A stretch of 64,000 nt of DNA from a virus (lineage: Duplodnaviria; Heunggongvirae; Uroviricota; Caudoviricetes). Positions within the stretch are counted from its first letter, which is position 1, and each line of letters begins with the position of its first letter. Positions 34,467 through 52,999 of this stretch are shown in pieces. The notes beneath the pieces are model-generated. The model saw only the letters and a program-made list of their open reading frames with translations, had not been told where the DNA came from and ran no database searches. The translations under genes and the position numbers were made by a program. The stretch is taken from IMG/VR virus record IMGVR_UViG_2913147268_000005. One strand, 5' to 3'.

Positions 34467-34542
34467 GGCCCTTTAGCTCAGTGGTGAGAGCGAGCGACTC
34501 ATAATCGCCAGGTCGCTGGTTCAAATCCAGCAAGGGCCACCA
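34467..34542 (+). tRNA. tRNA with CAU anticodon (ileZ-like tRNA-Ile2 or tRNA-Met)
   Basis: Cloverleaf with acceptor GGCCCTT/AAGGGCC, GTTCAAATCC T-loop, CTCATAA anticodon loop, 3' ACCA. Confidence 0.8.
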
Positions 34543-34642
34543 TCACAAACCGCCATTAGCTTATCAGGAAGAGCAGACGACACGATAACAGGGTTGTTGG
34601 TGCGGGGGCGGGTCCCCGATGGCGGTCCATTATCGGTATTCA

Positions 34643-34719
34643 GCGTTGTTAGCTCAGCCGGACAGAGCAATTGCCTTCTAAGCAATCGGTCACTGGTTCG
34701 AATCCAGTACAGCGCGCCA
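34643..34719 (+). tRNA. tRNA-Arg (UCU anticodon)
   Basis: Cloverleaf with TAGCTCAGCCGGACAGAGC D-arm, CCTTCTAAG anticodon loop, GGTTCGAATCC T-loop, 3' GCCA. Confidence 0.8.
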
Positions 34720-34826
34720 TATTCATTCTTCCAGATTCCTTCCGGCAGAGCCTTATACTGAAATATACCTGGCTCAGGATATTGTTGAAAATATTATATG
34801 TTTGTCAAAAATAAAAGTTCTGTTAA

Positions 34827-35183
34827 GTGTTGATTGAGTGTTTGTTATACGGTCTAATGGTTTTTTCAGCATTAAATATTTATCATTCATATGGTGTGGG
34901 TAGAGTGAATATTGATGAGGCGTCGGGGTGTTTCATCCTTAGGCAGCGTATTGATATAGTCAATGCAGCACGAGCAAAGGCCTTCAGCCGTTTGACAGTT
35001 TTGTTCTGTACTCCTGATCGTCTTTCGGGAAGAGACGTTATTATTCTGAATAGTGATGCTATACAGAGGGTTTGCGATGAGTTCATGGTGGCTAATTCAG
35101 AATTATTTACTCTTGTTCAGGAGTACAACAGAATAGCCAGGACCTGTGGTATGGATGAACTTCGGATTACTCATCTGGGGTAG
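34827..35183 (+). CDS. Hypothetical protein (108-118 aa), AT-rich
   Basis: GTG or internal ATG start; no recognisable motif; occupies the slot after the tRNAs. Confidence 0.4.
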   Translation: MLIECLLYGLMVFSALNIYHSYGVGRVNIDEASGCFILRQRIDIVNAARAKAFSRLTVLFCTPDRLSGRDVIILNSDAIQRVCDEFMVANSELFTLVQEYNRIARTCGMDELRITHLG

Positions 35184-35569
35184 ATACATATCTGGATTAT
35201 CACCGGTTACGGTAAAAAGTGATTGCTTACTGTTTTTGTGAATGGCATTGCTGCAGCCGGATAATGTCAGTGCTGGCTGACGGTGTGCTGGTGGCGGGTG
35301 TGGTGGTTGTTGCTTTCCCGTTGCTGAAAAAGAAAACGCCAGACTGTTAGCCGGGTATCAGTTAGCGGGAGAAATTTTTAAATACTTCACAATTCAGGCG
35401 GTTGATTGTTGTCTGGTTTGCGGGGAGTTTGTTAAAAGAAACTGGCATGGTGAATCCCCCTGTGCGGAGGGGCAATCAGCGAGTAGGTATATGGGATAAT
35501 CGCGGATTCAGGTGCTGGTACTGAATTCACCGGGAGGCACCCGGCACCATGCAATGGCACATAGCGCCA

Positions 35570-35600
35570 CTCTCCAGCCCCTCTCCGGAGGGGCTGTTTA
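35570..35600 (+). terminator. Hairpin (9-bp stem CAGCCCCTC/GAGGGGCTG) followed by a T-rich tract
   Basis: Perfect 9-bp stem with 4-nt loop; sits between the convergent 34827 and 35631 ORFs. Confidence 0.5.
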
Positions 35601-35630
35601 TATTGATTTTGTCAGATGTGAGTAAACTCC

Positions 35631-35966
35631 TTATGGACTTTGTTGTTTTAGTCCATAAGGACATATTTGCAGAGTGCAACGGTTATTAAAGCATTCATTC
35701 AATACGTTATCTGTATTTGTAGGGCATTCCTGGCTGTTTTTGATTAAATTCCAGAATGTTTTATTGAATGGTACTACGTTGTAAATGGTTACAGGTAGCA
35801 CTTTGTTATTGAGCATGATGCCTGTGTGAGTCAGTGTAAATATACTTTCAGGAGGTAAGAAAGCATCCGATTGATACCAGATTATTAATTTTATTTTACT
35901 CCATATGACTGAAAAAGATATTCCGCATGATGGCTGGATAACTGTATCAATCACAATCCACTTCAT
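35631..35966 (-). CDS. Hypothetical Cys-containing protein (111 aa), AT-rich
   Basis: ORF on the minus strand in an AT-rich island; no motif assigned. Confidence 0.4.
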
Positions 35967-36211
35967 TTAGTTTCCTTGTTTATGCCTTGCTGGTGATGTT
36001 CTGAAAAGTATAAATGATATTTTTGATTGTAAACCATAGAGCAGAATTATTTTTCTGATGTTGTTTATTGTTTATTTAAATGCAGGGTGGTTTATATCTC
36101 GTCTTGTAGTTTATCCATGCATATCTGCTTGATGATGAGGTTTTTATTTAAGGTATGGTTTTGTGTTTTTTCTGTATTACATGTCAGGTATTTTAAAGAA
36201 TCATTTTTCAG

Positions 36212-36705
36212 ATGGTGGAAAGAACCATGGCATTTAAACACTATGATGTTGTCAGGGCGGCGTCGCCGTCAGATCTTGCGGAAAAGCTGACACATAAACT
36301 GAAAGAGGGCTGGCAGCCGTTTGGTAGTCCGGTGGCCATAACCCCTTATACCCTGATGCAGGCGATTGCAGCAGAAGGTGATGTGGTCGTCAGTGGTGCA
36401 ACTGAGCCGGAGTGGTACTACGTCATCGTACTGGCCGGGCAATCCAATGCCATGGCTTACGGTGAAGGGCTTCCGCTTCCGGATTCATACGATGCGCCCC
36501 ATCCGCGCATTAAGCAACTGGCCCGTCGTAACACAGTGACTCCCGGTGGTGAAGTATGCGTATTTAACGACATCATTCCTGCTGACCATTGTCTGCATGA
36601 TGTTCAGGATATGAGTACGATTAACCATCCCCGGGCTGACCTGAGCAAAGGGCAGTACGGCTGTGTCGGACAGGGCTTACATATTGCCAAAAAACTGCTT
36701 CCGTG
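36212..36705 (+). pseudogene. NanS-p-like esterase, N-terminal fragment
   Basis: Matches the 54243 esterase through ...GQGLHIAKKLLP (including the GQSNA motif), then diverges into the antisense of another ORF. Confidence 0.6.
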
Positions 36706-37339
36706 CATTTTTGGTAATATCCGTCAGCGTCAGCGCATTCAGCCCCAGTGTCAGACTGTCTTTTATGACCTGGAATGCCGGGCCAGCCACTCCATTCAGT
36801 TTCGGAGTAACCGTGGCACTGCCGGCGGTGAACACCAGCTCCAGCGTCTGCCAGTCGTTACTGTAATTCCCGAACTCGCCCAACTTTGTGTTTCCTGCTT
36901 TCTTGTGATGCATCAGATTCAGTTTGCCGTCTGTGGTCTGGGTGAAGAACGACATCAGGAACGGGTTACCAGTCCCGGTCATCGCCACGACGTCAGGTAA
37001 CGCTACATCGGTATACAGATAAATTCCCAGACCGAACTGATTGTTGGTCAGTGCGCCTGACAGTCGAAACTTACAGCTCAGTCTGCCACCCCGTGTCAGC
37101 AGGGAGACTGCGTCATCCACCGGGCGCGTCAGGGACCAGGCTTTATTGCTCTGCTTGGTGATCTTAAATACACCATCTGACAACTGAATTCCGCCATTCT
37201 TAATGCTCCAGCCCTGCGCAGCAGCATCTCCGGCTGTCGGCAACAGGGAGATTGTGCGTACGGATGCATCTTCAGACGGCCCCGATGGCGTGTCGCCGCC
37301 GGGCGAGGGTTTGATTTCCGGTGCCTTACCACTAGTCAT
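36677..37339 (-). pseudogene. Inverted gene fragment (220-aa ORF) starting with the 56-bp repeat and ending in the antisense of the esterase fragment
   Basis: Begins MTSGKAPEIKPSPGGDTPSGP (the same peptide the 54243 ORF encodes at its junction); the last ~10 codons are antisense to 36677-36705. Confidence 0.45.
37278..37333 (-). repeat. 56-bp inverted repeat, left copy
   Basis: Reverse complement reads AGTGGTAAGGCACCGGAAATCAAACCCTCGCCCGGCGGCGACACGCCATCGGGGCC, identical to 55434-55489 by my reading. Confidence 0.8.
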
Positions 37340-37393
37340 CGGGCATTATCTGAACATAAAACACTATCAATAAGTTGGAGTCATTACCCAAAA

Positions 37394-37804
37394 ATGCACG
37401 CAAAAGAAGAAGGTATCATCAGAGCACTGAAAGAAATTTCAAAGACAGAAAACGAAGTAGCGAAAAAAGCCATAGCAAATAATCATATGGACGTCGCAAC
37501 CCACACACTGATAGTCGCAAGAGTCACGGCAGAAGCAGCCGAAATTATCGCAAAACAGGATGCTGAACTGGCGGTTCTCAGAACACAACCAGTCACCGGA
37601 CTGGATTTGTCTAACACCGGACGCCTTATTTACACAATTGGCTCGGAGCTACAGCGATACACCATTATCGCCGGGTTACAGGATAAATACCTGATCACTC
37701 CTCACCCCATAAGGGAATCAGAAATTCTGACAAATCTCCGCCTGATAGAGCGCTCTCAAGTCGCATTCATTGATGACGCACAGTGCACCGTATTTAACGC
37801 ATAG
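37394..37804 (+). CDS. Hypothetical protein (136 aa)
   Basis: ORF with ATG start at the left end of the P2-like module. Confidence 0.5.
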   Translation: MHAKEEGIIRALKEISKTENEVAKKAIANNHMDVATHTLIVARVTAEAAEIIAKQDAELAVLRTQPVTGLDLSNTGRLIYTIGSELQRYTIIAGLQDKYLITPHPIRESEILTNLRLIERSQVAFIDDAQCTVFNA

Positions 37805-37827
37805 AGTTACTGGACAAAGGGGGCGCA

Positions 37828-38031
37828 ATGGCAATTAAGCATTTTCCCGTCGTTCGCTTTACCTCCAGAGGGCGCGAATACGAGGTCGACGAACGCCTGA
37901 TTACCACTATCGACAAACATCGTTCGGAAAAGGATGCACACCACATCTACCTCACTGACGGCACTTACTTCTGCGCCACTAATGTGGCGCGGGTAAACCT
38001 TATCCGACAGGTACAGGAGCCACGCAGATGA
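37828..38031 (+). CDS. Hypothetical small protein (67 aa)
   Basis: ORF overlapping the next gene by 4 nt. Confidence 0.4.
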   Translation: MAIKHFPVVRFTSRGREYEVDERLITTIDKHRSEKDAHHIYLTDGTYFCATNVARVNLIRQVQEPRR

Positions 38032-38294
38032 CCATTCTGGACTACATCGCTACTCATCCGGGGTGTAGCGGCGGAGAGATCGCCGCAGCACTGAATACTC
38101 CAACCACAGCCATTAATGCTGAGTTACGCCAACTTTGGCGCGGCGGCTTAGTCATCAGAACAAACCGCAGCACAGGTGGTCGCGCTCGCAAAACTGGAGG
38201 CCAGGCTTCTTACCACGTAAACCCGATGCCGTTCGGGTGTAGCAATCCACTTACTCACATGTTTAACCAGCTACTGAAGGAAGCCAGAACATGA
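38028..38294 (+). CDS. Winged-helix DNA-binding protein (88 aa)
   Basis: HPGCSGGEIAAAL motif shared with the N-terminus of the 8829-9323 protein. Confidence 0.5.
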   Translation: MTILDYIATHPGCSGGEIAAALNTPTTAINAELRQLWRGGLVIRTNRSTGGRARKTGGQASYHVNPMPFGCSNPLTHMFNQLLKEART

Positions 38295-38590
38295 GCACCA
38301 TCAACCACCAGAAGCTACGCGAACTGGCATTTGCCCTGCAACGAATGGCAACACCTCAAAAATTACTGGCATTTCGCGCAATGCTCTCGCCGTCTGCTGC
38401 GCTGGCATTGCTGGATGAGCTGGAGCACGCCAGAACCACGGCTCCTGCCATTCGCCTGACGCTCCATCATGAAATCGCTGATTTCTGCGCGACATTGGAG
38501 GTGCCAGGCGAACCGGAAACGCCGGAAGCAATACAGCAAGAGCTGCTGCAACGTATTGACAAGGTTTTTGATTTTTTTCTGAACCAGTAA
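38291..38590 (+). CDS. Hypothetical protein (99 aa)
   Basis: ORF overlapping the upstream gene by 4 nt. Confidence 0.5.
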   Translation: MSTINHQKLRELAFALQRMATPQKLLAFRAMLSPSAALALLDELEHARTTAPAIRLTLHHEIADFCATLEVPGEPETPEAIQQELLQRIDKVFDFFLNQ

Positions 38591-38713
38591 GAAACCAGAG
38601 CATGCACACACAAAAAAACCGCTTGCCATGCCGCAATCAGTCAGGTTACATTTCCGCTGCACCTCATAAAACGGGTGCCGGGTTTCGCAGCCTGCTGACT
38701 ACACAAGCGCACA

Positions 38714-38733
38714 ACCGCGCCAGCGGTTTTTTT
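38714..38733 (+). terminator. Intrinsic terminator candidate (ACCGC-GCCA-GCGGT plus T7)
   Basis: Hairpin plus T-run about 125 nt after the 38291-38590 gene. Confidence 0.45.
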
Positions 38734-38912
38734 GTGCGTACTGTATTGCCACGTTTTTTTCGCGTCAGAATTATGGCGGGGCGTACGGGGCCGACTTCGG
38801 TCGGGCCGGGTTCTTGTGTAGCCGGTACTGCGAACCTCGTACGTCTCGCCACCCACAGTTTCGCAGCTCTGGATGGTGAGTTTTCACAACTTACTACACA
38901 AGGGGCCACACC

Positions 38913-39143
38913 ATGGCAAACCGCAAACAGCACCGCGCTATCGCGGAGCGTCGTCACATCCAGACTGAAATCAACCGCAGACTTTCCCGCGCATCACGCG
39001 TCGCGCAAATCATGCACATCAATATGCTGCATGAGCGCAGCCACGCACTATCAAACATTTATTCCGCCTCTGTTTTCAGCTATCTGGCGGATGATCTGCA
39101 CGAGCTTCAACAGCTCATCCAGCAGCAAAACAAACTCCATTAA
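38913..39143 (+). CDS. Hypothetical small basic protein (76 aa)
   Basis: ORF with protein-like composition; overlapped by a longer low-complexity frame that I reject. Confidence 0.35.
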   Translation: MANRKQHRAIAERRHIQTEINRRLSRASRVAQIMHINMLHERSHALSNIYSASVFSYLADDLHELQQLIQQQNKLH

Positions 39144-39215
39144 TTCCTGTTCCGGGCCTTTCCTGCACCTTGCGGCGGGAGGCCTTCGCACATCTGTAAC
39201 AAGAGGATTGCCGCA

Positions 39216-39581
39216 ATGATTCTCGCCAACGACTTTCTTGAATACCTGCTCAATACAGAACGTGATCTTGCCGCTCGCGTGCGTGATCGTTATGACATGT
39301 ACCTGAAATCCCTGCCTGTACCGCAGCTCGCTGACGGAAAGATTGTTATTGATGGTCGCTACATGATTGACAGCCACGAGGGAAATTACAGGCTTTACCG
39401 CATTGAAGGTGGCACCCCGTCCGTTATTGGCATTTACCAGCGCCCATCCTCTGCAATCGTCGATGTGATTGCCGACAGCATCCGCATCACACATCGCCAT
39501 GCCGACACAGAAGACACCGTGCTGGAAATTCAGCGGCTGGCTACAGTCTGCCGCGACACCCTGAATGGCATGACGAAGTAA
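39216..39581 (+). CDS. Hypothetical protein (121 aa) immediately upstream of the replication gene
   Basis: ORF ending 6 nt before the gpA-like start. Confidence 0.5.
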   Translation: MILANDFLEYLLNTERDLAARVRDRYDMYLKSLPVPQLADGKIVIDGRYMIDSHEGNYRLYRIEGGTPSVIGIYQRPSSAIVDVIADSIRITHRHADTEDTVLEIQRLATVCRDTLNGMTK

Positions 39582-39587
39582 ATCACT

Positions 39588-42410
39588 ATGACGGCAGAGT
39601 ACCTCAGGGACTGGCAACAACCGCGCCACGCAGTGGGGCGTGAAGGAACGGGGATCCCCGCTCCTGAATCCGCGCTTTCCTCCTGGCTGGATGCCTACCG
39701 GGCAGAGAACGAGCGCCGCCAGGAAATGGCTGATGCGGCGTTCTCAGCCACGCCGCTGGGCAACCTGATTAATAAAAGCCTGGACGCACAGGAAAAACAG
39801 GACAAAACCATCACACTGGCAGGAGACGCCAGAAAACAGGCACGTGGCGCGGTGGATGAAGCCATGGCCTCGCTGCGCCTGCTGCCGTCCTATCTGCGCG
39901 ATCCGCTTATTCGCCACCTCTCCTTCCTGCGCAAAAAACAGGAAGCCGATCGCCGGAAAGGCAAAAAGAGCTGGCAGGCGGAACGCTATGCACGCGGAAC
40001 CCTGCGCAAAATATTCGAACGTCTGGATAGCACTGACGGACGCTGGCTGACACCGGGTTATCGCTCCCTTGCCGGACGCGAACGCCTGGACGATTTGCTT
40101 TACCTGCCGCAGCTCAACAAACACCAGATACAGACGCTGGCCACCATGACGGCGGCGATGTTCAGCAGCACCTTCGAAAAACTCTGCGATGGCTTTGGCG
40201 CGACCGATGGCGAGCTGACCATGGATGTAACCCTGAAGGCGTATCAGATGCTGGCCCGCATGGCGTTACACCTGCACGCCATGCCTCCACATTATGACGC
40301 ACTGACAACAGACAAAGACCGGAGGAACGAACCGGACACGGAGCTGCTGCCGGGCGCAATCCTTCGCCTGACCTGTGCGGAATGGTGGAAACGCAAACTG
40401 TGGCTGTTACGTTGCGAGTGGAGAGAAGAACAACTCCGCGCCGCCTGTCTGGTTTCCAGAAAAACATCACCCTATCTGAGCCAGGACGCGTTAAGCGAGT
40501 TTCGCGCACAGCGCGAGAAAACACGCGATTTCCTGAAAAGTTTCATGCTGGAAAATGAAGACGGGTTCACGATTGATCTCGAGACAGTGTATTACGCGGG
40601 AGTAAGTAACCCGGTTCACCGTAAGGCAGAAATGATGGCCACCATGAAGGGACTGGAACTTCTGGCCGAAGCCCGTGGCGACAAAGCGGTGTTTCTGACT
40701 GTCACCTGCCCGTCAAAATACCACGCCACAACGGAGAACGGTCATCCGAATCCCAAATGGAACGGGGCCACAATGCGCGACTCCAGCGATTACCTGGTTA
40801 ACACGTTTTTTGCGGCGGTCCGCAAAAAACTGAACCGCGACGGCCTGCGCTGGTATGGCATCCGCACGGTGGAGCCTCATCATGACGGCACCGTGCACTG
40901 GCATATGATGGTCTTTGCACATCCGGAAGAAATCGACACCATTGTGTCCCATACCCGCGATATTGCCATTCAGGAAGACCGCCACGAGCTGGGCAATGAT
41001 ATTACTCCGCGCTTTAAGGTGGAGTATGTCGACGGCTCAAAAGGCACGCCAACCAGCTACATCGCCACCTACATCGGAAAGAACCTGGACAGCCGCGCCG
41101 TGGATGGCATCGACCCGAAAACGGGCAAGCCACGCGTGGACCACGAAACCGGAAAATCAATGGCCGAGAGCGTGGAGCGCGCCATCGGCTGGGCGCGCCT
41201 TCACCGGGTCCGTCAGTTCCAGTTCTTTGGCATCCCCTCCCGTCAGGTGTGGCGTGAACTGCGCCGCCTTGCCAGCCAGATGGCACGCAATCCGGAAGGC
41301 CCGCAACGGCTGAAAGATGATGCAATGGATGCGGTACTCGCTGCCGCCGATGCCGGGTGTTTTGCCACCTACATTGAAAAACAGGGTGGCGTGCTTGTTC
41401 CACGCAAGGACTACCTGATTCGCACCGCCTACGACCTCGCAGATGAGCTGAACGATTACGGCGAACAGAGCGTACAGATTTACGGGATCTGGTCACCACT
41501 CATCGGGGAATCCTCCCGTGTGTGCACGCATCCGGATAACTGGAAGCTGGTAAGACGTAAACCGGAAGCGGAAGACAGCGCCCGCGAAAATGGTTTTGAC
41601 CTTCAGGGCGGCCCTGCCGCCCCTTGGACTCGTGGCAATAACTGTCCCCGTGTACAGGAAACGGACAACAACGGGACAGAACAGCCGGAAGAACGGCCAG
41701 CACCGTGGCCGCAGCTCCCTGACGGCGTTGAAGTGAACGAATGGATGCGCTCACTGAAACGACACGAACGCCGGGCGCTGATGCGTTCGCTTCGTGACAA
41801 ACAGGCAAAAAACAGCAGCGATGAAATGCAGAGCTGGACACAGAGCCGCAAACAGCAGCGGCCTTTGCCTGATAACCACGAATTACTCGCTAAAGAATGG
41901 CGGGAGTCTGCTGAATCTCTCGGCCTGCATATCGGTGAACAACAGATGCAGCACCTGTTACGGGGCGGCAGTCTGTACGTTGACGGCAGCATCATTGCAC
42001 CGCAGGGATTTGAAATTGTACGCAAACCGGATACCCGCCCGGACAGCCGAATCACGCAGCTCTGGCAGCGCCTGAGCCGTAATCATGGCGTAAGCAGCAC
42101 GGAGATCCGCCATAACCCGGTCGCCAGCTATCTGGCACAGCTGGGGGCATCAGACCCTGAAGCCGCCGCACGCCTGGCATCCACACTTCAGCAGGGCCAG
42201 AACACCATGAAAACACCCGTTACCGTGCTTTCTGACATGCTGCGCGCCATCCGCGACGCAGAGCACGCACAGAGAATCAGTGAAACCACTGAACGCGCCA
42301 GCCGCAAAGCAGACCTGCTGCGGGGTGGCCTGACCAGTGGAAACAAAAAACAGACAGAAACGGGACTTACGAATCCCGTAAATGAGCAAAAAACGCGCAG
42401 CGATATATGA
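39588..42410 (+). CDS. Rolling-circle replication endonuclease, P2 gpA family
   Basis: 940 aa; HUH-type motif (GTVHWHMMVF) and paired tyrosines (SYIATYIGK). Confidence 0.8.
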   Translation: MTAEYLRDWQQPRHAVGREGTGIPAPESALSSWLDAYRAENERRQEMADAAFSATPLGNLINKSLDAQEKQDKTITLAGDARKQARGAVDEAMASLRLLPSYLRDPLIRHLSFLRKKQEADRRKGKKSWQAERYARGTLRKIFERLDSTDGRWLTPGYRSLAGRERLDDLLYLPQLNKHQIQTLATMTAAMFSSTFEKLCDGFGATDGELTMDVTLKAYQMLARMALHLHAMPPHYDALTTDKDRRNEPDTELLPGAILRLTCAEWWKRKLWLLRCEWREEQLRAACLVSRKTSPYLSQDALSEFRAQREKTRDFLKSFMLENEDGFTIDLETVYYAGVSNPVHRKAEMMATMKGLELLAEARGDKAVFLTVTCPSKYHATTENGHPNPKWNGATMRDSSDYLVNTFFAAVRKKLNRDGLRWYGIRTVEPHHDGTVHWHMMVFAHPEEIDTIVSHTRDIAIQEDRHELGNDITPRFKVEYVDGSKGTPTSYIATYIGKNLDSRAVDGIDPKTGKPRVDHETGKSMAESVERAIGWARLHRVRQFQFFGIPSRQVWRELRRLASQMARNPEGPQRLKDDAMDAVLAAADAGCFATYIEKQGGVLVPRKDYLIRTAYDLADELNDYGEQSVQIYGIWSPLIGESSRVCTHPDNWKLVRRKPEAEDSARENGFDLQGGPAAPWTRGNNCPRVQETDNNGTEQPEERPAPWPQLPDGVEVNEWMRSLKRHERRALMRSLRDKQAKNSSDEMQSWTQSRKQQRPLPDNHELLAKEWRESAESLGLHIGEQQMQHLLRGGSLYVDGSIIAPQGFEIVRKPDTRPDSRITQLWQRLSRNHGVSSTEIRHNPVASYLAQLGASDPEAAARLASTLQQGQNTMKTPVTVLSDMLRAIRDAEHAQRISETTERASRKADLLRGGLTSGNKKQTETGLTNPVNEQKTRSDI

Positions 42411-42486
42411 AGCGCGCACAAAACAGGCAAAAACGGGATTTCAGAATCCCGTAAACGATTAATTAATCAACATAAGGAAAAGCGAC

Positions 42487-43446
42487 ATGAAAATTTGTAT
42501 CGACGACGGCTCCACCAACATCAAGCTGGCATGGACTGAGAATGGCGAACGCCGCAACGCCATCAGCCCGAACAGCTTCAAGTCGGAATGGTCTGCGCCG
42601 TTCGGTGGCATGCAGCCCGCGAACTACATGCTTGATGGCGTGCGCTATGGTTTTGATCCGGTTAGCGATCGCTTTGTCCAGACGACCGACACGCAATACC
42701 AGTACAGCGATGTGAATGTAATCGCCATTCATCACGCGCTGGTCAAATCAGGCATCACGCCACAGGAGGTGGATGTGGTTGTCACCCTGCCACTGAGCGA
42801 GTATTTCGACACAAACGCACAGCCGGACATGGCCAACATCAACCGCAAAAAAGCGAACGTTATGCGCCCGGTGGAATACCAGAACGGCGAAGCATTCACT
42901 ATCCGTAACGTGCGGGTTATGCCTGAATCCATTCCGGCTGGCTTTAAAGCACTGGCTGACATGAGTCCGTTTGAATCCCTGCTGATTGTGGATTTAGGCG
43001 GAACCACGCTGGATGTGGCAAAGGTTCAAGGGCAACTGGCAGGTATCAGCCAGGTGTTTTGCGATCCACACGTAGGCGTTTCCCTGATGGCCGATGCCGT
43101 ACTGTCGGTGATGGCCACTAACGGTATGCGCACCAGTCACCACATCGCCAATACCATTATCGAACATCGCCATGATGAAGCCTGGCTGCGCCAGCACATC
43201 CACAATGACGCGCATTACGCCAGCCTGATGGCGGTTATTCGTGAAAAGGAAGAAACACTGAAACAACGCGTGATCCGCGCGCTGGCGGTTTTTTCGGGTT
43301 ACGGGCGGGTGATGGTTGTCGGTGGAGGGGCGGAGATTGTGGCACCCGCTATCCGCGAAGTCTGCGGAGTTAATGCGACTTTCATCGCGGACGGGGTGCC
43401 ACAGTTTGCTCTGGTTAATGGGCTGTACGCAATGGACAAGGAGTAA
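42487..43446 (+). CDS. ParM/StbA-like actin-fold ATPase
   Basis: Phosphate-1 (KICIDDGSTNIKLAW) and phosphate-2 (LIVDLGGTTLDVA) motifs of the actin/Hsp70 fold; 319 aa. Confidence 0.7.
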   Translation: MKICIDDGSTNIKLAWTENGERRNAISPNSFKSEWSAPFGGMQPANYMLDGVRYGFDPVSDRFVQTTDTQYQYSDVNVIAIHHALVKSGITPQEVDVVVTLPLSEYFDTNAQPDMANINRKKANVMRPVEYQNGEAFTIRNVRVMPESIPAGFKALADMSPFESLLIVDLGGTTLDVAKVQGQLAGISQVFCDPHVGVSLMADAVLSVMATNGMRTSHHIANTIIEHRHDEAWLRQHIHNDAHYASLMAVIREKEETLKQRVIRALAVFSGYGRVMVVGGGAEIVAPAIREVCGVNATFIADGVPQFALVNGLYAMDKE

Positions 43447-43450
43447 ACCA

Positions 43451-43765
43451 ATGACGACACCAACCAGACGGATAAGTTTCTATCTGAAGCCCGCCGCCGT
43501 CAAGAGTGAACAGGAGGCGTGCAATTACCTCGATAGCCTGCCAGCCTCCGAACGCAGCCGCGCGCAACGCGCGGCCTTTCTGGCTGGGCTAGCGCTCATA
43601 AAGCGCAACCCAGCATTTGCCTACTGGATGGCCGAATGGCCAGAGGACAACCTCCCCTTCAATACCGTTAGCATCAAGGAAACATACCAGGATAATCAGC
43701 CTAGCGGAGTTGAATGCAATTTTTATAAAATAAAAAAGAATATTCAGACCTTATTCCCAGAATAA
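43451..43765 (+). CDS. Small protein downstream of the ParM-like gene (ParR-like adaptor candidate)
   Basis: ATG at 43451 behind a GGAGTAAACC RBS; N-terminal RISFYL beta-strand-like start; assignment is positional only. Confidence 0.4.
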   Translation: MTTPTRRISFYLKPAAVKSEQEACNYLDSLPASERSRAQRAAFLAGLALIKRNPAFAYWMAEWPEDNLPFNTVSIKETYQDNQPSGVECNFYKIKKNIQTLFPE

Positions 43766-43848
43766 TCTGATAATTGTATGTGAACTAATAAAATACAGAC
43801 CAACACATCATTCTGGCACCCTTGCTAACAGGGTGCCAATGTTTCAAA

Positions 43849-44691
43849 TCATGATGAAATTGCCGAAGTTTTTTTATCGTGCTGAAGTACCGCAAATGCC
43901 ATTAAAACCTCAAGAGAATAGCGGCGATAATACTTAACAAAACCATAATAAAATACTCGGGATGCAGCAATACAAAACAAGAGAAGAAAACAAAAAGGTA
44001 ACAGTCTGATATTTATATCTATTAAAAAGGATAGAAGGAGCAGGAACATAAGCAACCAGACTGAAGCGAGAAAAACAAATGTAATGTTTCTACAAAAACC
44101 ATACAAAGCAACATAGTTTTGCATTTTCACCTGATGATTTTTAGAATGTTCATACACATAATGATAAGCAAGGCGAAAAAGATCGCCCCTCAAGCCCTTA
44201 CGTCGATATAGCGTAGATACAGAAAAAACATTTATATAACCATCTCGTATTTGCGGCCAAAAGACTTTAATAAGTATAGAATGCAGTGTGGTTTTATGAT
44301 GTTCTGCTTTATCAAAAGCTGATACAGGAAATAAAAAAACTCCACGAATAAAATTAACTATACTGAACTTAGTATTATGTCGTTTTATTTTCAGGGAGCT
44401 TCTTTTAGAAAACAGATAAATTGAAGGATACCCAAGTTTACTGTTCATGTATTTTTCAATTAAACAGGATGATAGAATAGATATGAAGTGACCTGAAATA
44501 TATGATAGAACGATTAATACCACATATATAAATACACTTATTATTTCTTTATATTTCAGGATATGGTTAAGAATACCTTCTATATAAACAGGGTTAATTT
44601 CAATAGAAAACAAAAAAAGGATAAACAGGAATAACCCACCTGGAATTAGATAGCCCAAAAAGTCATAAAATGAAAACGGATTCTGTGTCAC
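43849..44691 (-). CDS. Multi-pass membrane protein (280 aa), AT-rich cargo
   Basis: GTG start behind an AGGGGGAAGT RBS; two N-terminal and two C-terminal hydrophobic helices around a ~120-aa loop; second gene of a two-gene operon. Confidence 0.55.
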   Translation of the reverse strand: MTQNPFSFYDFLGYLIPGGLFLFILFLFSIEINPVYIEGILNHILKYKEIISVFIYVVLIVLSYISGHFISILSSCLIEKYMNSKLGYPSIYLFSKRSSLKIKRHNTKFSIVNFIRGVFLFPVSAFDKAEHHKTTLHSILIKVFWPQIRDGYINVFSVSTLYRRKGLRGDLFRLAYHYVYEHSKNHQVKMQNYVALYGFCRNITFVFLASVWLLMFLLLLSFLIDINIRLLPFCFLLLFCIAASRVFYYGFVKYYRRYSLEVLMAFAVLQHDKKTSAISS

Positions 44692-44730
44692 ACTTCCCCC
44701 TGTGTTACTTGTAAATTAAAGGGTAAAACA

Positions 44731-45228
44731 TTATTTGTTTTTCCGTAAAGGATTAGCTTTCCATCTTCTTACTAACCATTCGAATTCTTGATATGTAGTA
44801 TCCGAATTAATGCTTTCTCTGATTGCTTTAATTAATGGCTCGGCAATATCATATGTCTCTACAACTGTTGTGTAAGATGTTCTTTTTATCATTTTTTCAT
44901 CATAAATACCTTCACGAATACTTACAGCAACTCGCTCGTAAAAATTTAAAATATATTGAAATTTTCGACGCTCGGCCATTTCTTCATCTGTTATTATGCA
45001 ACCATCACAAGGAAAAACATAAGAACGAAATGATTTGCCTGAACGATGCACTTGTTTCAGGGTATGCAATGACTCTATATATTGCATATCTTGCCGACTC
45101 TCAAAAAGAAAGTTGGCCGTTTGAGTTTTTTTTGCGGTACGCACATTGTAGATAATGGTTCCAATGGCAACCAAAACGCCAAGCAGAACAATAGCATTGC
45201 TGATGATTTGTAGTGTTATTGGGTTCAT
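44731..45228 (-). CDS. N-terminally membrane-anchored protein (165 aa), AT-rich cargo
   Basis: One N-terminal TM helix (LQIISNAIVLLGVLVAIGTIIY) then a soluble domain containing CDGC; first gene of the operon. Confidence 0.55.
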   Translation of the reverse strand: MNPITLQIISNAIVLLGVLVAIGTIIYNVRTAKKTQTANFLFESRQDMQYIESLHTLKQVHRSGKSFRSYVFPCDGCIITDEEMAERRKFQYILNFYERVAVSIREGIYDEKMIKRTSYTTVVETYDIAEPLIKAIRESINSDTTYQEFEWLVRRWKANPLRKNK

Positions 45229-45248
45229 CCTATTTCATCCATAAAAAA

Positions 45249-45275
45249 GGCGGGGAGCAAATCCCCGCCTCATTA
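45249..45275 (-). terminator. Hairpin (GGCGGGGA/TCCCCGCC) plus U6 on the minus strand, about 15 nt upstream of the 44731-45228 RBS
   Basis: Perfect 8-bp stem with 5-nt loop; T-run on the minus strand. Confidence 0.55.
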
Positions 45276-45426
45276 GAGGTCAACGTAGCTTAGAAACCAT
45301 CAAATTCATCATACATTTTTTTCATATCAACCCCCTCATAGAAATCATAACCACGTTTTGTGGTTTTTGTGACGTATAAACTACATCAAAGGCAAGCCAC
45401 GGTCAAATATATAGGCATGCTTACCT

Positions 45427-45453
45427 GCACAAAAGTGCACAAATTTGCACAAT
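45427..45453. promoter_or_regulatory. Three direct TGCACAA repeats with 10-bp phasing
   Basis: TGCACAAaagTGCACAAattTGCACAA read on the plus strand; a TATATT -10-like hexamer lies downstream on the minus strand. Confidence 0.5.
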
Positions 45454-45951
45454 TTTTTTGAACGACTTTTTACCCTTCCGGCCCGCATGGCGGCTGGATC
45501 CGTCAAGGATCCGTGCGTGCACAAAAAAACGCGCTTTTTCTGCGCGCAGGTGACGGGGGAACAGCCCGCGTTTCAGGGGGTAAATAGCATTCCCTGAACG
45601 ATGTCGCAGAGACACAACAGAATGGCCATATTTCTCACGCTGAGCATGAAAAAGGCGTGAGGGCTTTTGATTTGATGGGGTGAAAGGTAAGGCCGTCAAA
45701 ATCGCACTGAGGCAGCGAGAACATGCAGTCAACGCGGTGGAATTGCGTAAGAGTCTGACCGTCGATGGTGGCGATAAACTGGAAGGCGTCGTGAAATTAT
45801 CTGATTGATACAGGAGCTGGAGAGCCGGGGCATAAATTTTTTATGCCCCGGCGAAGCAGCAGACAAGCGAAGCGCGTCAGCGATACGGCACCTTGCCGAC
45901 CATACTTCATAAGTGCAAAATACGAGCAAAGAAATCAATGGAGGCTGTCTT

Positions 45952-46476
45952 ATGGTCATTAATTACAAGCAGTTAAGAGAAAAACGGGAGCAGGTAAAGG
46001 AGAGCTTTCGCCGCAATGAAGATCTGACCCCGCTTGTACGCCTTGCCCAGGGCATTGTTGATGCTTATGAAATCTCGCTGGAGCTGCCATCACAGACCTG
46101 GACAGATAGCGACGGTAATCGCCAGCATTACGTTTCATGCGGACTGGAAGCAGCCGAAGGATTTCGCAGAATGCCTTTATCCCAGATCCCTGCCGCTACC
46201 CCCAAAGCACGGGGCAGCAATGATGAGCGAAAACTGACTTTTAGTATTGAAACGGTGGTTGACGACACACCTGGCGAAGTCGCGTTCGTGCACACTCCTG
46301 TTTCGATCGCAATGTATAACGATGAAATACAGGTTCGCGTTAATAATAATATCGTGCCACTTAAAGAAGGTAATTCACCCTACACCACCGTTTGTGAAGC
46401 CATTCAATATTACGTTCTCTCTGAAATTGATAATCTCAAGCCTGACGGCACCCAGAAAATGGTTCAACTCTGGTAA
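45952..46476 (+). CDS. Hypothetical protein (174 aa)
   Basis: ATG at 45952 with GGAGG RBS 7 nt upstream; followed directly by a strong terminator hairpin. Confidence 0.5.
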   Translation: MVINYKQLREKREQVKESFRRNEDLTPLVRLAQGIVDAYEISLELPSQTWTDSDGNRQHYVSCGLEAAEGFRRMPLSQIPAATPKARGSNDERKLTFSIETVVDDTPGEVAFVHTPVSIAMYNDEIQVRVNNNIVPLKEGNSPYTTVCEAIQYYVLSEIDNLKPDGTQKMVQLW

Positions 46477-46483
46477 AAAGGAC

Positions 46484-46510
46484 AGCCCCATCACGGGGCT
46501 GTTTTTTCAT
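46484..46510. terminator. Bidirectional intrinsic terminator (CAGCCCC-ATCAC-GGGGCTG plus T6)
   Basis: Perfect 7-bp stem flanked by an A-run and a T-run between two convergent genes. Confidence 0.6.
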
Positions 46511-47537
46511 CAAGAAGAGCATAAGAGTTAAAACGGATCACCTCTTCGCCAAGCCAGTCATTGATGTGCTTCATAGCCTCCATAACGGGCATCAGCTCGT
46601 TAATTGCGTAAACCCGCGCTGCCTTCTCCACATCGCCAAACGCACTTTTTTCGCCCGGCATCGCCCCCATCAGTTGCGGCGGAACGCGGTGCGCAGCCAG
46701 CACATCATCACGGGATGCCGCCTTAACATTCATGAATTCATCTTTTGCGGTGATCTGCTGGAACGGCAAAATTTGCACCCCCTCTTTGCCCCCGTTGGGC
46801 GCATGAATGAGCACGTTTTTAAACGCACCACCACCACGTGCCCCCTGTAGCGTTTCTTTCAGGGAGTCCATGCTTTCGCGGTTTACCTGCGCTGCACCGA
46901 TGTAGATGATGCACCCGGCGTGGGATCCGTTGTCGTAGTACAGTTTTCTGAACATGTCCGCCGAATGAGAAAGGCTGGCCGAGAGTAATGCGCCAAGATA
47001 TTCCGGCATGCCGTAGATTTCCTGGTTAATATCCGGATTCATCAGGTGGCACACTTTGCCAGGACGAAACTGAAACGCGTCCTTGCCATCCTGCACATAC
47101 CACCATGATTCAAGATCGCTTCCGCGTCGCATGTATTTCGCCAGGGCGTGCCGTAATTTAAGCGGTTCGCCGAGCATATTGCTTCGAAGCTCAAGGAATG
47201 CGTTACCGAACACAAACCAGTCCAGCGCCAGCGCCGAGAAATCCTGCCGGGAAAGCAGCGGGTGCGGGATGTAGCAACCGAGTAATACATTGCGCTTAAA
47301 GTAAAGCGCAGACTGATGCCAGGACGTTTGCCGGGCTGCTCTTGCCAGACCGTACCAGTCCACCGGGGTTTCATACCACCGCCCGTTATCAGCACAGTAC
47401 ATATTGTCCAGCAGGTCATGCCCGGTCAGGCGATAAGGACCATCAAATGTGAATGCACTGAGCGATGATTCTTTCCTGAGCGCATCAGCGAGATCAATGC
47501 GTGAACTCATGCGCACTTTTTTATTTTTTCTGCTCAT
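46491..47537 (-). CDS. Portal protein (P2 gpQ-like)
   Basis: 348 aa; adjacent to and divergent from the scaffold/capsid genes, as in P2. Confidence 0.85.
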   Translation of the reverse strand: MSRKNKKVRMSSRIDLADALRKESSLSAFTFDGPYRLTGHDLLDNMYCADNGRWYETPVDWYGLARAARQTSWHQSALYFKRNVLLGCYIPHPLLSRQDFSALALDWFVFGNAFLELRSNMLGEPLKLRHALAKYMRRGSDLESWWYVQDGKDAFQFRPGKVCHLMNPDINQEIYGMPEYLGALLSASLSHSADMFRKLYYDNGSHAGCIIYIGAAQVNRESMDSLKETLQGARGGGAFKNVLIHAPNGGKEGVQILPFQQITAKDEFMNVKAASRDDVLAAHRVPPQLMGAMPGEKSAFGDVEKAARVYAINELMPVMEAMKHINDWLGEEVIRFNSYALLDEKTAP

Positions 47538-49288
47538 CAGAACTCCATAACCATGAAACGCTCGTTTTCTCCTTCGCCGCCAATTGGTTCGTTAATGACA
47601 GCAAGCATGGTTGCCCACGCAAGGTCGCCGTGGCTGATCCCCCTCGCGCGGTCCGTTTCGTAAGTGATAAAGCCGCCCGGTGTTTTCACCTTACGCACGG
47701 CGTTAAAGGCCGCGACCAGCTCGCGTTCGGCGCGATCGTATTCCCACCGCCCGGCACGCATTATTTGCAGCATTTTCAGTACCAGCGACCGTTTTGATGA
47801 CAGCGTGAAGGTGTACGGAATAGCAGCAGGGAAAAACCGCTTCACTATCTGATAAACAGCCTCCCCGTTCCCGCCCGTCACATCAATGCCGATGTGTTCC
47901 ACGTTGTAGCGACACGTGAACTCTTCAATGACTCTGGCCTGTTCTTCAAACTCCAGCCCCTGAACGCGTCGCGTCTCCACCGTTCGAAAACGGCCGCCAG
48001 GAACAGCCGGAGGAACCACCACGGACACAGCGCCGCTGTCGCCGTTGCCACTACTGCCGTTTGCGTCATACCCAATCCATACCGGACGATTCCCCATCGG
48101 GCGGGGAGCAAAAGGTTTCCAGTCTTTCCAGTCGTCGTATCCGTCAACACCGCAGCCAATCAGGATATTCAGGTTAAATGCCGATTCCCCTTCGCGGACA
48201 AACTCACACATATAGAGATTGAGGAACTCGTCTTCGGTGTTTTCATCACGAATTTCGTCGATATCGGTGTGTTTCCAGCCGTGATTAACCACATCTTCCA
48301 GCGTGACAATTTGCCGCCACGTCCGGTCAGGGCAGATAAGCCCATTATGCAGCGTTTTCCAGTCCACAGAAAAACGCTGGCGTTTATGCGAGGCCTTTTT
48401 CTCGTTCCAGCGGTCGCCGTTCCAGTAGGCGTATGCCTCGTGCGTTTCGGTGGATGGCGTGGAGAAGTAGGTGCGCCGCAGTCCGCTGAGGGTTGCCATA
48501 GCGCCAGCCACCTTGCGCAGTTCAGCAAAGCGACTGACCCAGAAAAATTCATCAAAATAAAAATTGCCCGTATAGGACTGTGCCGACGCAGCAGAAGTGC
48601 CGAGAAAATGCAGCTCTGCGCCGTTGGAGAGGATGATTTTATCGCCCCCTTTCAGCTCCACATCAACTTCAGCCGCGGCCTTCTGAATAATGCTTTTAAA
48701 CTGGAACGCCTGACGACGCGACGCAGACAAAAAAATCTGGTTACGCTGGTAAGGTTGCGCCACATCGTCACGCAGCGCCATCAGCAGTGCTTCCTGTGCA
48801 AAATACCAGGTCGCCCCAATCTGTCGGGATTTCAGGATCATCCTGTTACGTATCCCGGCTTCCCTGCAAAGGGTCAGGGAGTCAAACCAGCCCCGCTGAT
48901 GCCACTCCAGCCTGCTGATGATTTTTTCCCGCAGTGCGGCAATCTGTTCCGGCGTGAAATGATTTTTGAGTTTTTTCGCCCGGCCTTTCTTTCCTGCGGC
49001 CATCACATCCGGCTGGCCATCATGCAGCTTTTTAAGCTGCCGGGTCAGCAGGTCTATTTCCTTAAAGTCACCGCCTGTTTTATTCTGTTTTTCAGTAAGC
49101 TGGATGAGGCGCGCATCGATGGACTGCGTGACACGCTGCACGGGTGGCGTTTCATCCCACTGGTCACGTTTTTTCCACGCATAAATCGTGTTCGGGTTTA
49201 TTCCCATCAGACGTGATATTTCTGCGGGCGGATAACCCTGCCAGTAAAGTTGCCGCGCACGCTGGCGCACAAAAGCGTCCTGAATCAT
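47537..49288 (-). CDS. Terminase ATPase subunit (P2 gpP-like)
   Basis: 583 aa with N-terminal HTH-like segment (LYWQGYPPAEISRLMGINPNTIYAWKK); co-directional with the portal gene. Confidence 0.85.
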   Translation of the reverse strand: MIQDAFVRQRARQLYWQGYPPAEISRLMGINPNTIYAWKKRDQWDETPPVQRVTQSIDARLIQLTEKQNKTGGDFKEIDLLTRQLKKLHDGQPDVMAAGKKGRAKKLKNHFTPEQIAALREKIISRLEWHQRGWFDSLTLCREAGIRNRMILKSRQIGATWYFAQEALLMALRDDVAQPYQRNQIFLSASRRQAFQFKSIIQKAAAEVDVELKGGDKIILSNGAELHFLGTSAASAQSYTGNFYFDEFFWVSRFAELRKVAGAMATLSGLRRTYFSTPSTETHEAYAYWNGDRWNEKKASHKRQRFSVDWKTLHNGLICPDRTWRQIVTLEDVVNHGWKHTDIDEIRDENTEDEFLNLYMCEFVREGESAFNLNILIGCGVDGYDDWKDWKPFAPRPMGNRPVWIGYDANGSSGNGDSGAVSVVVPPAVPGGRFRTVETRRVQGLEFEEQARVIEEFTCRYNVEHIGIDVTGGNGEAVYQIVKRFFPAAIPYTFTLSSKRSLVLKMLQIMRAGRWEYDRAERELVAAFNAVRKVKTPGGFITYETDRARGISHGDLAWATMLAVINEPIGGEGENERFMVMEF

Positions 49289-49442
49289 TGCTCCCCCTGA
49301 GTAATTACAGGAAGATTACCCGCGCGCGAAACTGTTCTCCTTAACCCTCTGTTCTGACTGTTTTCTTACAACAAAAGCCCTTTGTATCAGCCTGTTACGC
49401 TTTGCCATCATGACTGAAGAACCAGTCAGAGGGGCAAAAACT

Positions 49443-50279
49443 ATGGCTAATGAAAAAAAGACATCCCGCAAAAAGTTTCGCGTGGCTGTCTCCGGATCAA
49501 CTGTTGATGGCCGTGAAATCAGTCCGGTGCATCTGCGTGAAGCCGCCGAGAACTTCAACCCGGATGTTTACGCTGCCCGCGTGAACGTTGAGCACTATCT
49601 CTCGCCATGTCCGTCAAGCGAATTTTCCGCAATGGGCGATGTCACCGCACTGAGTACGGAAGACATTACGGAAGGTCCGCTGGCCGGACGTACTGCGCTG
49701 TATGCAGAAATCGAACCGACCGAGCGCATGAAGCAGCTTGTCGCTGACGGCAAGAAAATCTATTCCAGTATCGAACTGCACCCGCAGTTCTCCGTTAACG
49801 GGCGCGCCTATCTGGTCGGGCTGGCGATGACCGACACCCCGGCAAGCCTGGGCACTGAGCGCCTGAAATTCACGGCACAGCAACGTCAGGCGGTGATGAC
49901 GTTCAACAGTATCCAGGGTGAAGCACCGCTTATCTCCGAAGCCATCGAGTCTGAAATCATCGAAATGGCAGAACAACGCCAGGAAGAAGGCACCCAGTGG
50001 TTTAACCGCGTAATGGGGATTATTGGTCGTGGCCGCAAAGCGGATGACGCCAGTTTCTCCCGAATTCAGGAAGCGGTGGAAGGCGTTGCAACGTCACAGG
50101 CCGACATTATCGACCGTTTTAATGTGCTGGAAACCCGCCATCAGCAGGACCGCCAGAAAATCACGTCACTGACCACAGAGCTGACAGCATTGAAGGAAAA
50201 ACTGCGCACGCAGGACGGCGATCCGCAGAACCGCTTCACCGCAACGGGCGCAGCCTCCGACCAGCTGGCTGACTTCTGA
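49443..50279 (+). CDS. Capsid scaffolding protein (P2 gpO-like)
   Basis: ATG at 49443 behind a GAGGGG RBS; N-terminus (KKFRVAVSGSTVDGREIS...VNVEHYL) resembles P2 gpO. Confidence 0.8.
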   Translation: MANEKKTSRKKFRVAVSGSTVDGREISPVHLREAAENFNPDVYAARVNVEHYLSPCPSSEFSAMGDVTALSTEDITEGPLAGRTALYAEIEPTERMKQLVADGKKIYSSIELHPQFSVNGRAYLVGLAMTDTPASLGTERLKFTAQQRQAVMTFNSIQGEAPLISEAIESEIIEMAEQRQEEGTQWFNRVMGIIGRGRKADDASFSRIQEAVEGVATSQADIIDRFNVLETRHQQDRQKITSLTTELTALKEKLRTQDGDPQNRFTATGAASDQLADF

Positions 50280-50302
50280 TAAGACAAAGGAGCAAATTTT
50301 TT

Positions 50303-51355
50303 ATGAATCTGGTGATGTCAGATATTACCCGCAACAAGCTGGGTTGCTATATGGCGCAGCAGGCGTCGCTTAACAATATCCCGGTATCTGCACTGGTATC
50401 GCGATTTACCGTGGAACCCGCGGTGCAGCAGCGTTTTGAAAACGCCTCAAAGGAAAGTACCGAATTTACGAAAAGAATTAACGTGATCGGCGTGACCGAC
50501 CAGAAAGGCGAAAAAATCCTCCTGGACACCACCGGGCCAATTGCGCGCACGAATAGCAGTTATGACGGCATCAAACGCCGTAACCCGAATAACGTGATCG
50601 ATATGAAGTCTCGTCAGTACCAGTGCGAACAGGTGAACTACGATACCTTTATTTCGTACCCACAGCTTGATACCTGGGCGGCCCACAGCGATTTTCAGTC
50701 CCGTATCAGTACACAGATCGCCCGGCAGGTAGCGCTTGATCGCATCATGATTGGCTTTAACGGCACATCCCACGCCTACGAGTCTGATTTTCACACCAAC
50801 AAGCTGCTTCAGGACGTTAACGTGGGCTGGCTGGAGCACATCAGAACCGATGCCAGCGAGCGCGTAATGAATGACGTGACGCTGACCTCCCGCAACATGG
50901 ACAACACTGTGGCGCACGCGGGTAAGTATGCGAATGCCGATGCTCTGGTACAGGATGCGCGCTCATCCCTGCTGGATGAATGGCACAAGGAAGCTGACGA
51001 CCTCGCGGTGATTATGGGGCGCAACCTGTTTAACTCGCTGCGTCTGCCCGTGCTGAACAGCATCAGCGGCCAGAATCCCAATGCGGAATTACTTGCCGGG
51101 CAGCTCATCCTGTCATCGCGCACCATTGGCGGGCTGGGCGTGTTCCTTGCGCCGTTCTTCCCGGATGCAACGATGCTTATCACCTCGTTCAACAACCTGT
51201 CGATTTACTGGCAGAAAGGTTCAATGCGTCGCCTGATGAAAGACGAGCCGGAATACAACCGCATCGCCACCTACCAGTCCATCAATGACGCTTATGTCGT
51301 TGAAGACTATGGCAAGTGCGCGATGGTCACTGGCCTGAAGTTCGCCGACAGCTAA
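50303..51355 (+). CDS. Major capsid protein (P2 gpN-like)
   Basis: 350 aa; resembles P2 gpN (RFTVEP...QESxxFxxRINV... GFNG ... LITxxxNLSIY). Confidence 0.8.
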   Translation: MNLVMSDITRNKLGCYMAQQASLNNIPVSALVSRFTVEPAVQQRFENASKESTEFTKRINVIGVTDQKGEKILLDTTGPIARTNSSYDGIKRRNPNNVIDMKSRQYQCEQVNYDTFISYPQLDTWAAHSDFQSRISTQIARQVALDRIMIGFNGTSHAYESDFHTNKLLQDVNVGWLEHIRTDASERVMNDVTLTSRNMDNTVAHAGKYANADALVQDARSSLLDEWHKEADDLAVIMGRNLFNSLRLPVLNSISGQNPNAELLAGQLILSSRTIGGLGVFLAPFFPDATMLITSFNNLSIYWQKGSMRRLMKDEPEYNRIATYQSINDAYVVEDYGKCAMVTGLKFADS

Positions 51356-51400
51356 TCAACTCACGGCGGGCATCATGCCCGCCTGTAACGGAGAGAAAAA

Positions 51401-52997: not shown

Positions 52998-52999
52998 CA

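Follow-up and report, generated by a model that had tools for sequence, protein, structure and literature searches.

An R1-type ParMR gene pair conserved behind the replication gene of integrating P88-like phages

The closest described relative of the locus reported here is the R1/NR1 ParMRC system (StbA/StbB) of IncF-type plasmids, and partition systems are usually taken as a signature of plasmids, also by phage-plasmid classifiers. The locus, a parM-parR cassette, lies in IMG/VR virus record IMGVR_UViG_2913147268_000005, from which a stretch of 64,000 nucleotides (the window) was analyzed; within this stretch it follows gpA, the replication gene of a P88-like phage (Xuanwuvirus, Peduoviridae). 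On sequence criteria, ParM and ParR make up a real, intact R1-type (type II, StbAB family) segregation gene pair, and the cassette is a further member of an already known system, not a new kind. It shares its protein families and gene order with R1-type ParMRC, and differs in lacking 11-bp iteron arrays and a strong autoregulated promoter, having instead two GGG-N10-CCC boxes, one of them within the upstream coding sequence. It also differs in its setting, on integrating phages behind gpA, and in a ParM that forms a separate clade, rare in plasmid records.

Segregation loci on normally integrated elements have precedents. The srpMRC locus of the SXT/R391 integrative and conjugative elements (ICEs) is expressed only on activation, and stabilizes an excised circle that is replicated by the relaxase (PMC4489591). 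Like the cassette, it is a type II-like locus on a normally integrated element, co-expressed with mobility functions and associated with a transient, rolling-circle-replicated form. However, SrpM and SrpR are only distant kin of R1 ParMR, whereas the cassette proteins are close kin; the host is an ICE, the operon contains int rather than a replication gene, and function has been demonstrated for srpMRC, while the cassette is known from sequence. The early-induced AlpAC system of the Corynebacterium glutamicum prophage CGP3 binds DNA upstream of its own operon, and the excised phage does not replicate efficiently without it (PMC4446434). AlpAC/alpS likewise places an actin-like ATPase and a DNA-binding adaptor on an integrated prophage (PMC4446434, PMC5539076); AlpC is nevertheless very divergent, the element is actinobacterial, and the gene order is different; the likeness to the cassette would be one of function.

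Among phages, a protein search of 50,697 phage records returned this ParM outside the P88-like group only from the P1-like phage-plasmid D6 (48% identity), whose annotation cites similarity to "phage P88 StbA protein". D6 differs in its plasmid lifestyle, in classical TCTCA-type iterons upstream, and in additional ParA-like genes, whereas P88-like phages integrate. The same contrast holds for phage-plasmids of the P1, N15, SSU5, and D6 type more generally: the P88-like relatives are chromosomal and integrase-bearing, with no plasmid-type replication module annotated. For phiSM, a P88-like phage, integration into the chromosome has been demonstrated experimentally, and its parM was listed as a "fitness" ORF (open reading frame; PMC6456863). 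The records of P88 and phiSM, and RefSeq records, already label the pair "plasmid segregation protein ParM" and "partition protein". The literature searched yielded annotation-level mentions only and no functional study of the P88/Xuanwuvirus ParM; undescribed there, and moderately interesting, are the gpA-tied phage ParM clade, its chromosomal prevalence, and the exchange of iterons and promoter for two boxes.

The phage DNA around the cassette is closely matched by known records. Between gpA and the portal gene, 6.9 kb of the window (6903 nt) match phage vB_EcoM-705R2 and an Escherichia coli ST131 prophage record (ON470623, PV468777) with 100% identity. Cargo aside, this stretch is 94-98% identical to P88, Citrobacter phage phiSM, and other Xuanwuvirus; P88 itself (NC_026014) matches at 97.6% identity over 63% of the query, and both gene order and identity agree with those of the named P88-like members. 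A ParM of at least 95% identity is present in all 14 P88-like phage records (14/14).

The 319-residue product of parM comprises the Pfam domain StbA_N (residues 1-157, E 2.7e-82) and the ParM C-terminal domain PF21523 (residues 159-316, E 1.1e-68), and can be aligned over its full length with solved R1 ParM structures (1MWK and others; E 1.1e-92, 47% identity). As read from these alignments, the phosphate-1 (IDDGSTNIKL), phosphate-2 (DLGGTTLD), and adenosine (GGGAE) motifs are identical or conservatively replaced relative to R1 ParM. The first-pass annotation of the window, made from its letters alone, had described a ParM-like, 319-residue protein with both phosphate-binding motifs at 42487-43765, together with a small downstream ORF, and this identification holds; the protein groups with ParM and not, as that annotation had allowed, with sugar kinases or Hsp70-like proteins. 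The 104-residue ORF begins 4 nt past the parM stop, and appears in the program-made ORF list as a longer, TTG-started ORF from 43316. Its product matches Pfam Plasmid_stab_B (StbB/ParR family, E 7.7e-29), which bears out the suggestion that a protein of about 100 residues follows the ATPase as in ParMR cassettes. The N-terminal ~55 residues of ParR align weakly with the pB171 ParR/StbB structure 2JD3 (E 0.012). The C-terminal motif (K/R)xN(A/I)xxLFP is kept in all phage lineages, and we take it to resemble the tail of R1 ParR.

Conservation was assessed in 88 P88-like loci from IMG/VR, species-representative genomes, and phage and plasmid records. An intact 319-codon parM is present in 88/88 of these, and parR is intact in 86/88, with one copy frameshifted and one truncated by a contig end. 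Purifying selection on parM is strong: its mean pairwise ratio of nonsynonymous to synonymous polymorphism (pN/pS) is 0.068, whereas the final 300 codons of gpA give 0.30. Within ParR, pN/pS is 0.13 in the N-terminal part, 0.5-0.7 in the linker, and 0.06-0.16 in the C-terminal tail, and the N-terminal strand TRRISFYLKP is invariant among alleles; this profile is the pattern expected of a working adaptor. These data make it extremely unlikely that the cassette is a decaying, now functionless relic of an old plasmid-phage fusion, as the first-pass annotation had offered among its possibilities. The absence of R1-type iterons and promoter would fit such decay, as would the fragmentary state of the phage in the window, yet parM is under stronger purifying selection than the gpA C-terminus, neither gene shows widespread disruption, and the position of the pair is kept across genera at 54-62% ParM identity.

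The depth of this positional conservation was assessed by a homolog search over 5.8 billion proteins, with genomic context looked up for seven homologs of intermediate identity. In P2-like prophages of Plesiomonas (62% identity to the window ParM) and Serratia (59%), parM lies directly behind Phage_GPA, while in those of Hafnia (62%) and Enterobacter (54%) the two genes are separated by one and two small ORFs, respectively. The remaining homologs belong to a Rep3 plasmid in Pantoea (52%), a plasmid-like region with Rep3/ParAB/umuDC in Mangrovibacter (50%), and a conjugative element with TraG/TraU in Dickeya (49%). In all four phage loci, parM is followed by a Plasmid_stab_B gene, cargo, and the portal and terminase genes; integrase, repressor, and Cox are present wherever the flank is visible, and two of the four loci sit on contigs of 0.47 and 2.3 Mb. 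Because the gpA-parM-Plasmid_stab_B arrangement is common to phages of several genera at this level of divergence, the gpA-parMR linkage is old. A neighbor-joining tree, which carries no support values and is indicative only, places the phage-context ParMs in one clade (16/107 tips). The premise that partition systems are foreign to integrated P2-type phages is not supported, as the cassette is conserved across a whole clade of them.

The cassette is also common. Of 5426 complete E. coli genomes, 1303 carry it, with up to three copies per genome, at 1441 chromosomal as compared with 2 plasmid places. R1-type ParMR can therefore be a stable, selected part of integrating phages, carried by about a quarter of sequenced E. 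coli chromosomes, and its presence alone is no sign of a plasmid lifestyle. Among 72,556 plasmid records, six contain a ParM of at least 95% identity and none contains one between 53% and 95%. Three of the six were inspected; two others are 0.44 and 1.4 Mb in size, and one is phage-sized. The inspected records were each rejected as evidence of plasmid life. The "542-kb plasmid" CP054248 is a mislabeled chromosome piece with dmsABC and focA, an IncHI2 record holds a prophage integrated beside pheA, and the IncC plasmid pC-Ec2-KPC (NZ_MK439959.1) carries a prophage fragment bounded by IS26. At least 15 kb of the latter is 100% identical to the phage fragment in the window, including gpA, parMR, and the same cargo; this copy begins beside IS26, about 290 bp left of the window's left breakpoint.

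Plasmid partition is the canonical function of the ParMR family, and P88-like phages could accordingly be facultative phage-plasmids that persist as low-copy circles (for example, where attB is absent or occupied), with ParMR as their partition system. A 34,461-bp circle deposited as a plasmid of a cat E. coli isolate, pZ1323PEC0009-2 (NZ_CP148288.1), is a complete P88-like phage with integrase, gpA, parMR, structural genes, Hok, and a methyltransferase; the next closest phage ParM belongs to the plasmid prophage D6; and the element carries a C4 antisense RNA module, which we take to be of the P1 immunity type. However, pZ1323PEC0009-2 may be a genuine episome or may have been assembled from phage DNA produced by spontaneous induction, which is equally able to yield a circular contig. 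The rarity of the ParM clade in plasmid records and the strongly chromosomal distribution in E. coli also run counter to this alternative, as does the gene content of complete relatives, which encode a tyrosine integrase, a repressor, and Cox, with gpA as the sole replication initiator by annotation and Pfam labels; gpA, moreover, sits in the lytic early operon. The first-pass annotation had named circular-junction evidence as a sign of an episomal form, and no contiguous attP junction of the pZ1323PEC0009-2 phage type was found in the 5426 E. coli genomes, by a search that would miss junctions at a record start, where that of the known circular record lies. Its suggestion that the element can replicate as a plasmid thus retains one weak piece of support in this circular record; a plasmid lifestyle is poorly supported overall, and we regard it as unlikely to explain the cassette.

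Upstream of parM, the window contains a 42-nt direct repeat in two copies, 73 bp apart and 83% identical (Table 1). Each unit carries a 20-bp palindrome, ACGGGAyT-N4-AATCCCGT, for which there are just two sites in the window (0.02 expected) and likewise just two in a complete relative. Between lineages, conservation is limited to the outer GGG and CCC triplets and the 10 nt that separate them; relative to the parM start, such GGG-N10-CCC pairs stand at -131/-59 in Plesiomonas (locus L094) and -128/-55 in Hafnia (L095), with box spacings of 72 and 73 bp, against a motif background of 0.1-0.4/kb. The 18.1-kb phage segment of the window contains the motif only at the two upstream boxes. The Hafnia boxes both fall inside an upstream ORF other than gpA, which indicates that they travel with parMR and not with gpA. 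The two boxes are the best candidate for the centromere (parC) and operator, with putative ParR-binding halves. The first-pass annotation had proposed looking for centromere-like direct repeats upstream of 42487; classical iterons are absent, and a different, conserved two-box element is found in that place.

Table 1. Coordinates of the replication gene, the cassette, and associated repeats in the window
Feature	Position	Strand	Description
gpA	39588-42410	+	940-residue rolling-circle replication endonuclease; Pfam Phage_GPA, E 4.9e-131; ends 76 bp before parM; box 1 falls in its last ~65 nt
Repeat unit 1	42344-42385		Inside the gpA 3' end; box 1 ACGGGACTTACGAATCCCGT at 42360-42379, first G at -125 from the parM ATG
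Repeat unit 2	42417-42458		In the 76-bp gpA-parM spacer; box 2 ACGGGATTTCAGAATCCCGT at 42433-42452, first G at -52 from the parM ATG
parM	42487-43446	+	319-residue actin-fold ATPase, R1 ParM/StbA family; ATG start
parR	43451-43765	+	104-residue predicted adaptor; ATG start; ribbon-helix-helix-type N-terminal DNA-binding part (~5-60), hypervariable linker (~65-94), tail KKNIQTLFPE
Perfect 9-bp inverted repeat	43814-43838		TGGCACCCT-N7-AGGGTGCCA; between parR and convergent minus-strand cargo genes

The boxes could instead be hairpins, acting as a minus-strand terminator or a gpA-linked single-strand replication signal, with the ParMR site elsewhere or nonexistent. In the P88 group they do fold stably (-8.7 and -10.7 kcal/mol), a T-run follows each box on the minus strand, where they are called terminator-like, and some variants retain plus-strand G-U pairs. 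In Plesiomonas and Hafnia, however, the inner arms are non-complementary and the folds reach only -4.2 to -4.9 kcal/mol, while triplets and spacing persist; this restriction of stable hairpins to the P88 group argues for a site bound by protein rather than for an RNA or single-strand structure. Furthermore, no minus-strand gene runs into the boxes across parMR, and the Hafnia boxes are untied from gpA. No alternative centromere-like repeat array was found in the phage, and a hairpin role in place of a centromere appears quite improbable. Repeat searches, including Tandem Repeats Finder, detected no iteron array near parMR in the window or the complete relative, and A-tract phasing (~10.5 bp) upstream of parM was not significant (score 0.68, equaled by 1/13 background windows).

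An array of 10-bp TGCACAAnnn repeats was considered as parC and rejected. Three tandem copies lie at 45427-45455 and a fourth about 70 bp on (45519-45526), followed by GGTGACGGGGGAACAGCCC (about 45549-45567), a sequence presumably similar to the P2 cohesive end. The ParM-less P2-like phage 500465-2 also has this block, from 45426 onward, which is therefore probably part of cos and terminase recognition rather than of a partition system. Separately, in one IMG/VR locus (among L008-L087) a 73-bp unit has been lost by recombination between the upstream repeats, leaving one box and a re-fused gpA 3' end; this variant is a ready-made one-box mutant.

A crude consensus scan found no promoter and no plus-strand terminator between gpA and parM, and gpA is the predicted upstream gene of the same transcription unit as parMR. 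Related cassettes of plasmids and D6 have an intergenic region of ~290 bp, with two clusters of ~11-bp CTCA-type iterons flanking a promoter. In the plasmid homolog examined, a near-consensus promoter (11/12 matches) lies between iteron clusters 73 bp apart, a two-part upstream element with the same spacing as the boxes in the window. Proteome and transcriptome supplements for O157:H7 were searched for expression of prophage CP-933T, which we take from the EDL933 annotation to be linked to this cassette, and held nothing usable.

Our preferred explanation, held with slightly better than even confidence, is that the cassette is a functional type II module kept in the early replication operon of an integrating P2-like clade, where it would move the transient circular genome. 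This clade comprises the P88-like Xuanwuvirus (in E. coli, Salmonella, and Citrobacter) and distant relatives in Plesiomonas, Hafnia, Serratia, and Enterobacter. Upon infection or induction, read-through of the early operon would yield gpA, ParM, and ParR together; ParR dimers would bind the two boxes on every circular phage genome, and the conserved ParR tail would capture ATP-ParM filaments, whose growth would push genome copies apart and spread the transient extrachromosomal circles. P2-type replication produces monomeric double-stranded circles, which are plasmid-like and also serve as the packaging substrate; a replicating phage therefore resembles a plasmid population, whose copies could in this way escape loss or clumping before integration, replication, or packaging. 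By analogy, the cassette most likely serves a short episomal phase of an integrating element, and not the upkeep of a plasmid prophage.

Several observations weigh against this explanation. Relatives in Serratia and Enterobacter have no such boxes; a long inverted repeat of another kind takes that place, and their ParR strand reads NRKISFYL in place of TRR(I/V)SFYL. Two boxes are few beside the many repeats of well-studied type II centromeres, and their binding by ParR is putative. Variation in the boxes does not track the two N-terminal classes of ParR; such independence would be expected were the DNA read by the invariant beta-strand TRRISFYLKP, though it lends no positive support. The promoter scan was a crude consensus search that a weak or activator-dependent promoter could escape, and the searched literature holds no expression, binding, or phenotype data for the cassette. 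A pushing system suited to low copy number may also add little among many circles, and the effects of the ICE precedent srpMRC are only modest (PMC4489591).

A bolder formulation, possible though doubtful, is that the clade has domesticated an R1-type segregation machine with a minimal, non-iteron, two-box centromere, wired into a rolling-circle replication operon. If so, the phage would actively partition its own copies while lysogeny is being established or during lytic growth; in a more radical version, it would alternate between integrated and plasmid lysogeny. Chromosomal ParMRC would then be common in E. coli, in about a quarter of complete genomes, and a natural minimal centromere would be at hand for the study of ParR-ParM coupling with two sites. 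If the role proposed for the cassette is right, active partition of a transient circle would extend from SXT/R391 ICEs and CGP3 to common enterobacterial phages. The system is easily testable, since both phiSM and P88 can be cultivated and only ~110 bp make up the candidate centromere.

The region downstream of parMR varies by phage, while the position of parMR is constant. Within parR, at about codon 19 (window 43505), there is a mosaic boundary, with variability continuing downstream: many E. coli genomes match the window to parR nt 55 and then continue with another parR allele and other cargo. The alleles comprise at least two N-terminal classes and several unrelated linkers, with a common tail NI-x-x-x-FP-(E/D/K/Q). 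The cassette had been described as sitting next to gpA in the variable cargo region; it does adjoin gpA, but lies outside the cargo, as variability begins only within parR.

This polymorphism, resembling that of conflict loci, raises the alternative of a host-directed or competitive cargo, in which ParR, ParM, or both, expressed by the lysogen, would not move the phage's own DNA. They would instead hinder plasmids or related phages by incompatibility of centromeres or adaptors, thus serving exclusion or defense, or would regulate transcription. The cassette borders the gpA-cos cargo hotspot, a slot that holds tin/old in P2, and multiple copies per genome would also fit. Nevertheless, its presence and position are invariant while neighboring cargo swaps, which likewise speaks against the "cargo system of another kind" entertained in the first-pass annotation, and the low pN/pS of parM reflects a constraint unneeded for an ATPase dispensable to exclusion. 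A PADLOC scan of ParM and ParR returned no defense-family match, no promoter of the cassette's own is evident, and the boxes are unlike the CTCA-type iterons of related plasmids, making cross-binding unlikely. A competitive role is, on balance, very improbable.

The cargo in the window is a low-GC (31%), two-gene, minus-strand segment (43849-45228) that converges on parR. Its genes encode a 280-residue multi-pass membrane protein with a weak PADLOC match to Csx27 (E 1e-5) and a 165-residue DUF4760 protein (Pfam E 1.8e-34); the pair is a candidate defense or exclusion cargo. In other P88-like phages the same slot holds a ClpX zinc-finger protein, HicAB, or a KAP NTPase. The inverted repeat between parR and this cargo possibly marks the end of the transcription unit; it was not called by the terminator scan, and is allele-specific, not conserved in P88.

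The P88-like DNA in the window is an 18.1-kb fragment (37389-55489), 99.9-100% identical to ST131 prophage records. Its left side lacks the integrase, repressor, Cox, and early ORFs, and its right side lacks all tail genes. Lambdoid prophage DNA bounds it on both sides, and the junctions, at 37389 and 55489, are abrupt. To the left (33753-37334) lies the end of a lambdoid prophage with a DNA methyltransferase, tRNAs, IraM, and a SASA-esterase gene, the 3' part of which is internally inverted at 36704; to the right (55488-64000) are lambdoid tail and head genes that run the opposite way. The fragment is bracketed by a perfect 56-bp inverted repeat (37278-37333 and 55434-55489), which stems from DUF1737/SASA genes that are homologous between the two prophages. 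The left junction is found in one piece in no complete E. coli genome, and the arrangement reflects either a genuine rearrangement between prophages, in several steps, or an assembly error. Because the phage is represented by this rearranged fragment, the cassette in the window is probably not working within a viable phage.

Two families of structured RNA were recognized by Rfam in the non-coding gap just upstream of a "derepression protein" gene (38913-39143) and gpA: the Hfq-binding RNA isrK (38659-38733, 65 bits) and C4 antisense RNA (38769-38856, 83 bits). We take the latter to be the antisense RNA of the P1/P7 immunity region; if this identity holds, P1-like phage-plasmids have two modules, C4 and ParMR, in common with the early/replication region. 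The adjacent lambdoid segment contains two tRNA genes (34467-34539 and 34643-34716) and the small RNA STnc100 (35416-35605, 132 bits), near the IraM anti-adaptor gene, which was recognized by homology to strain razor3.

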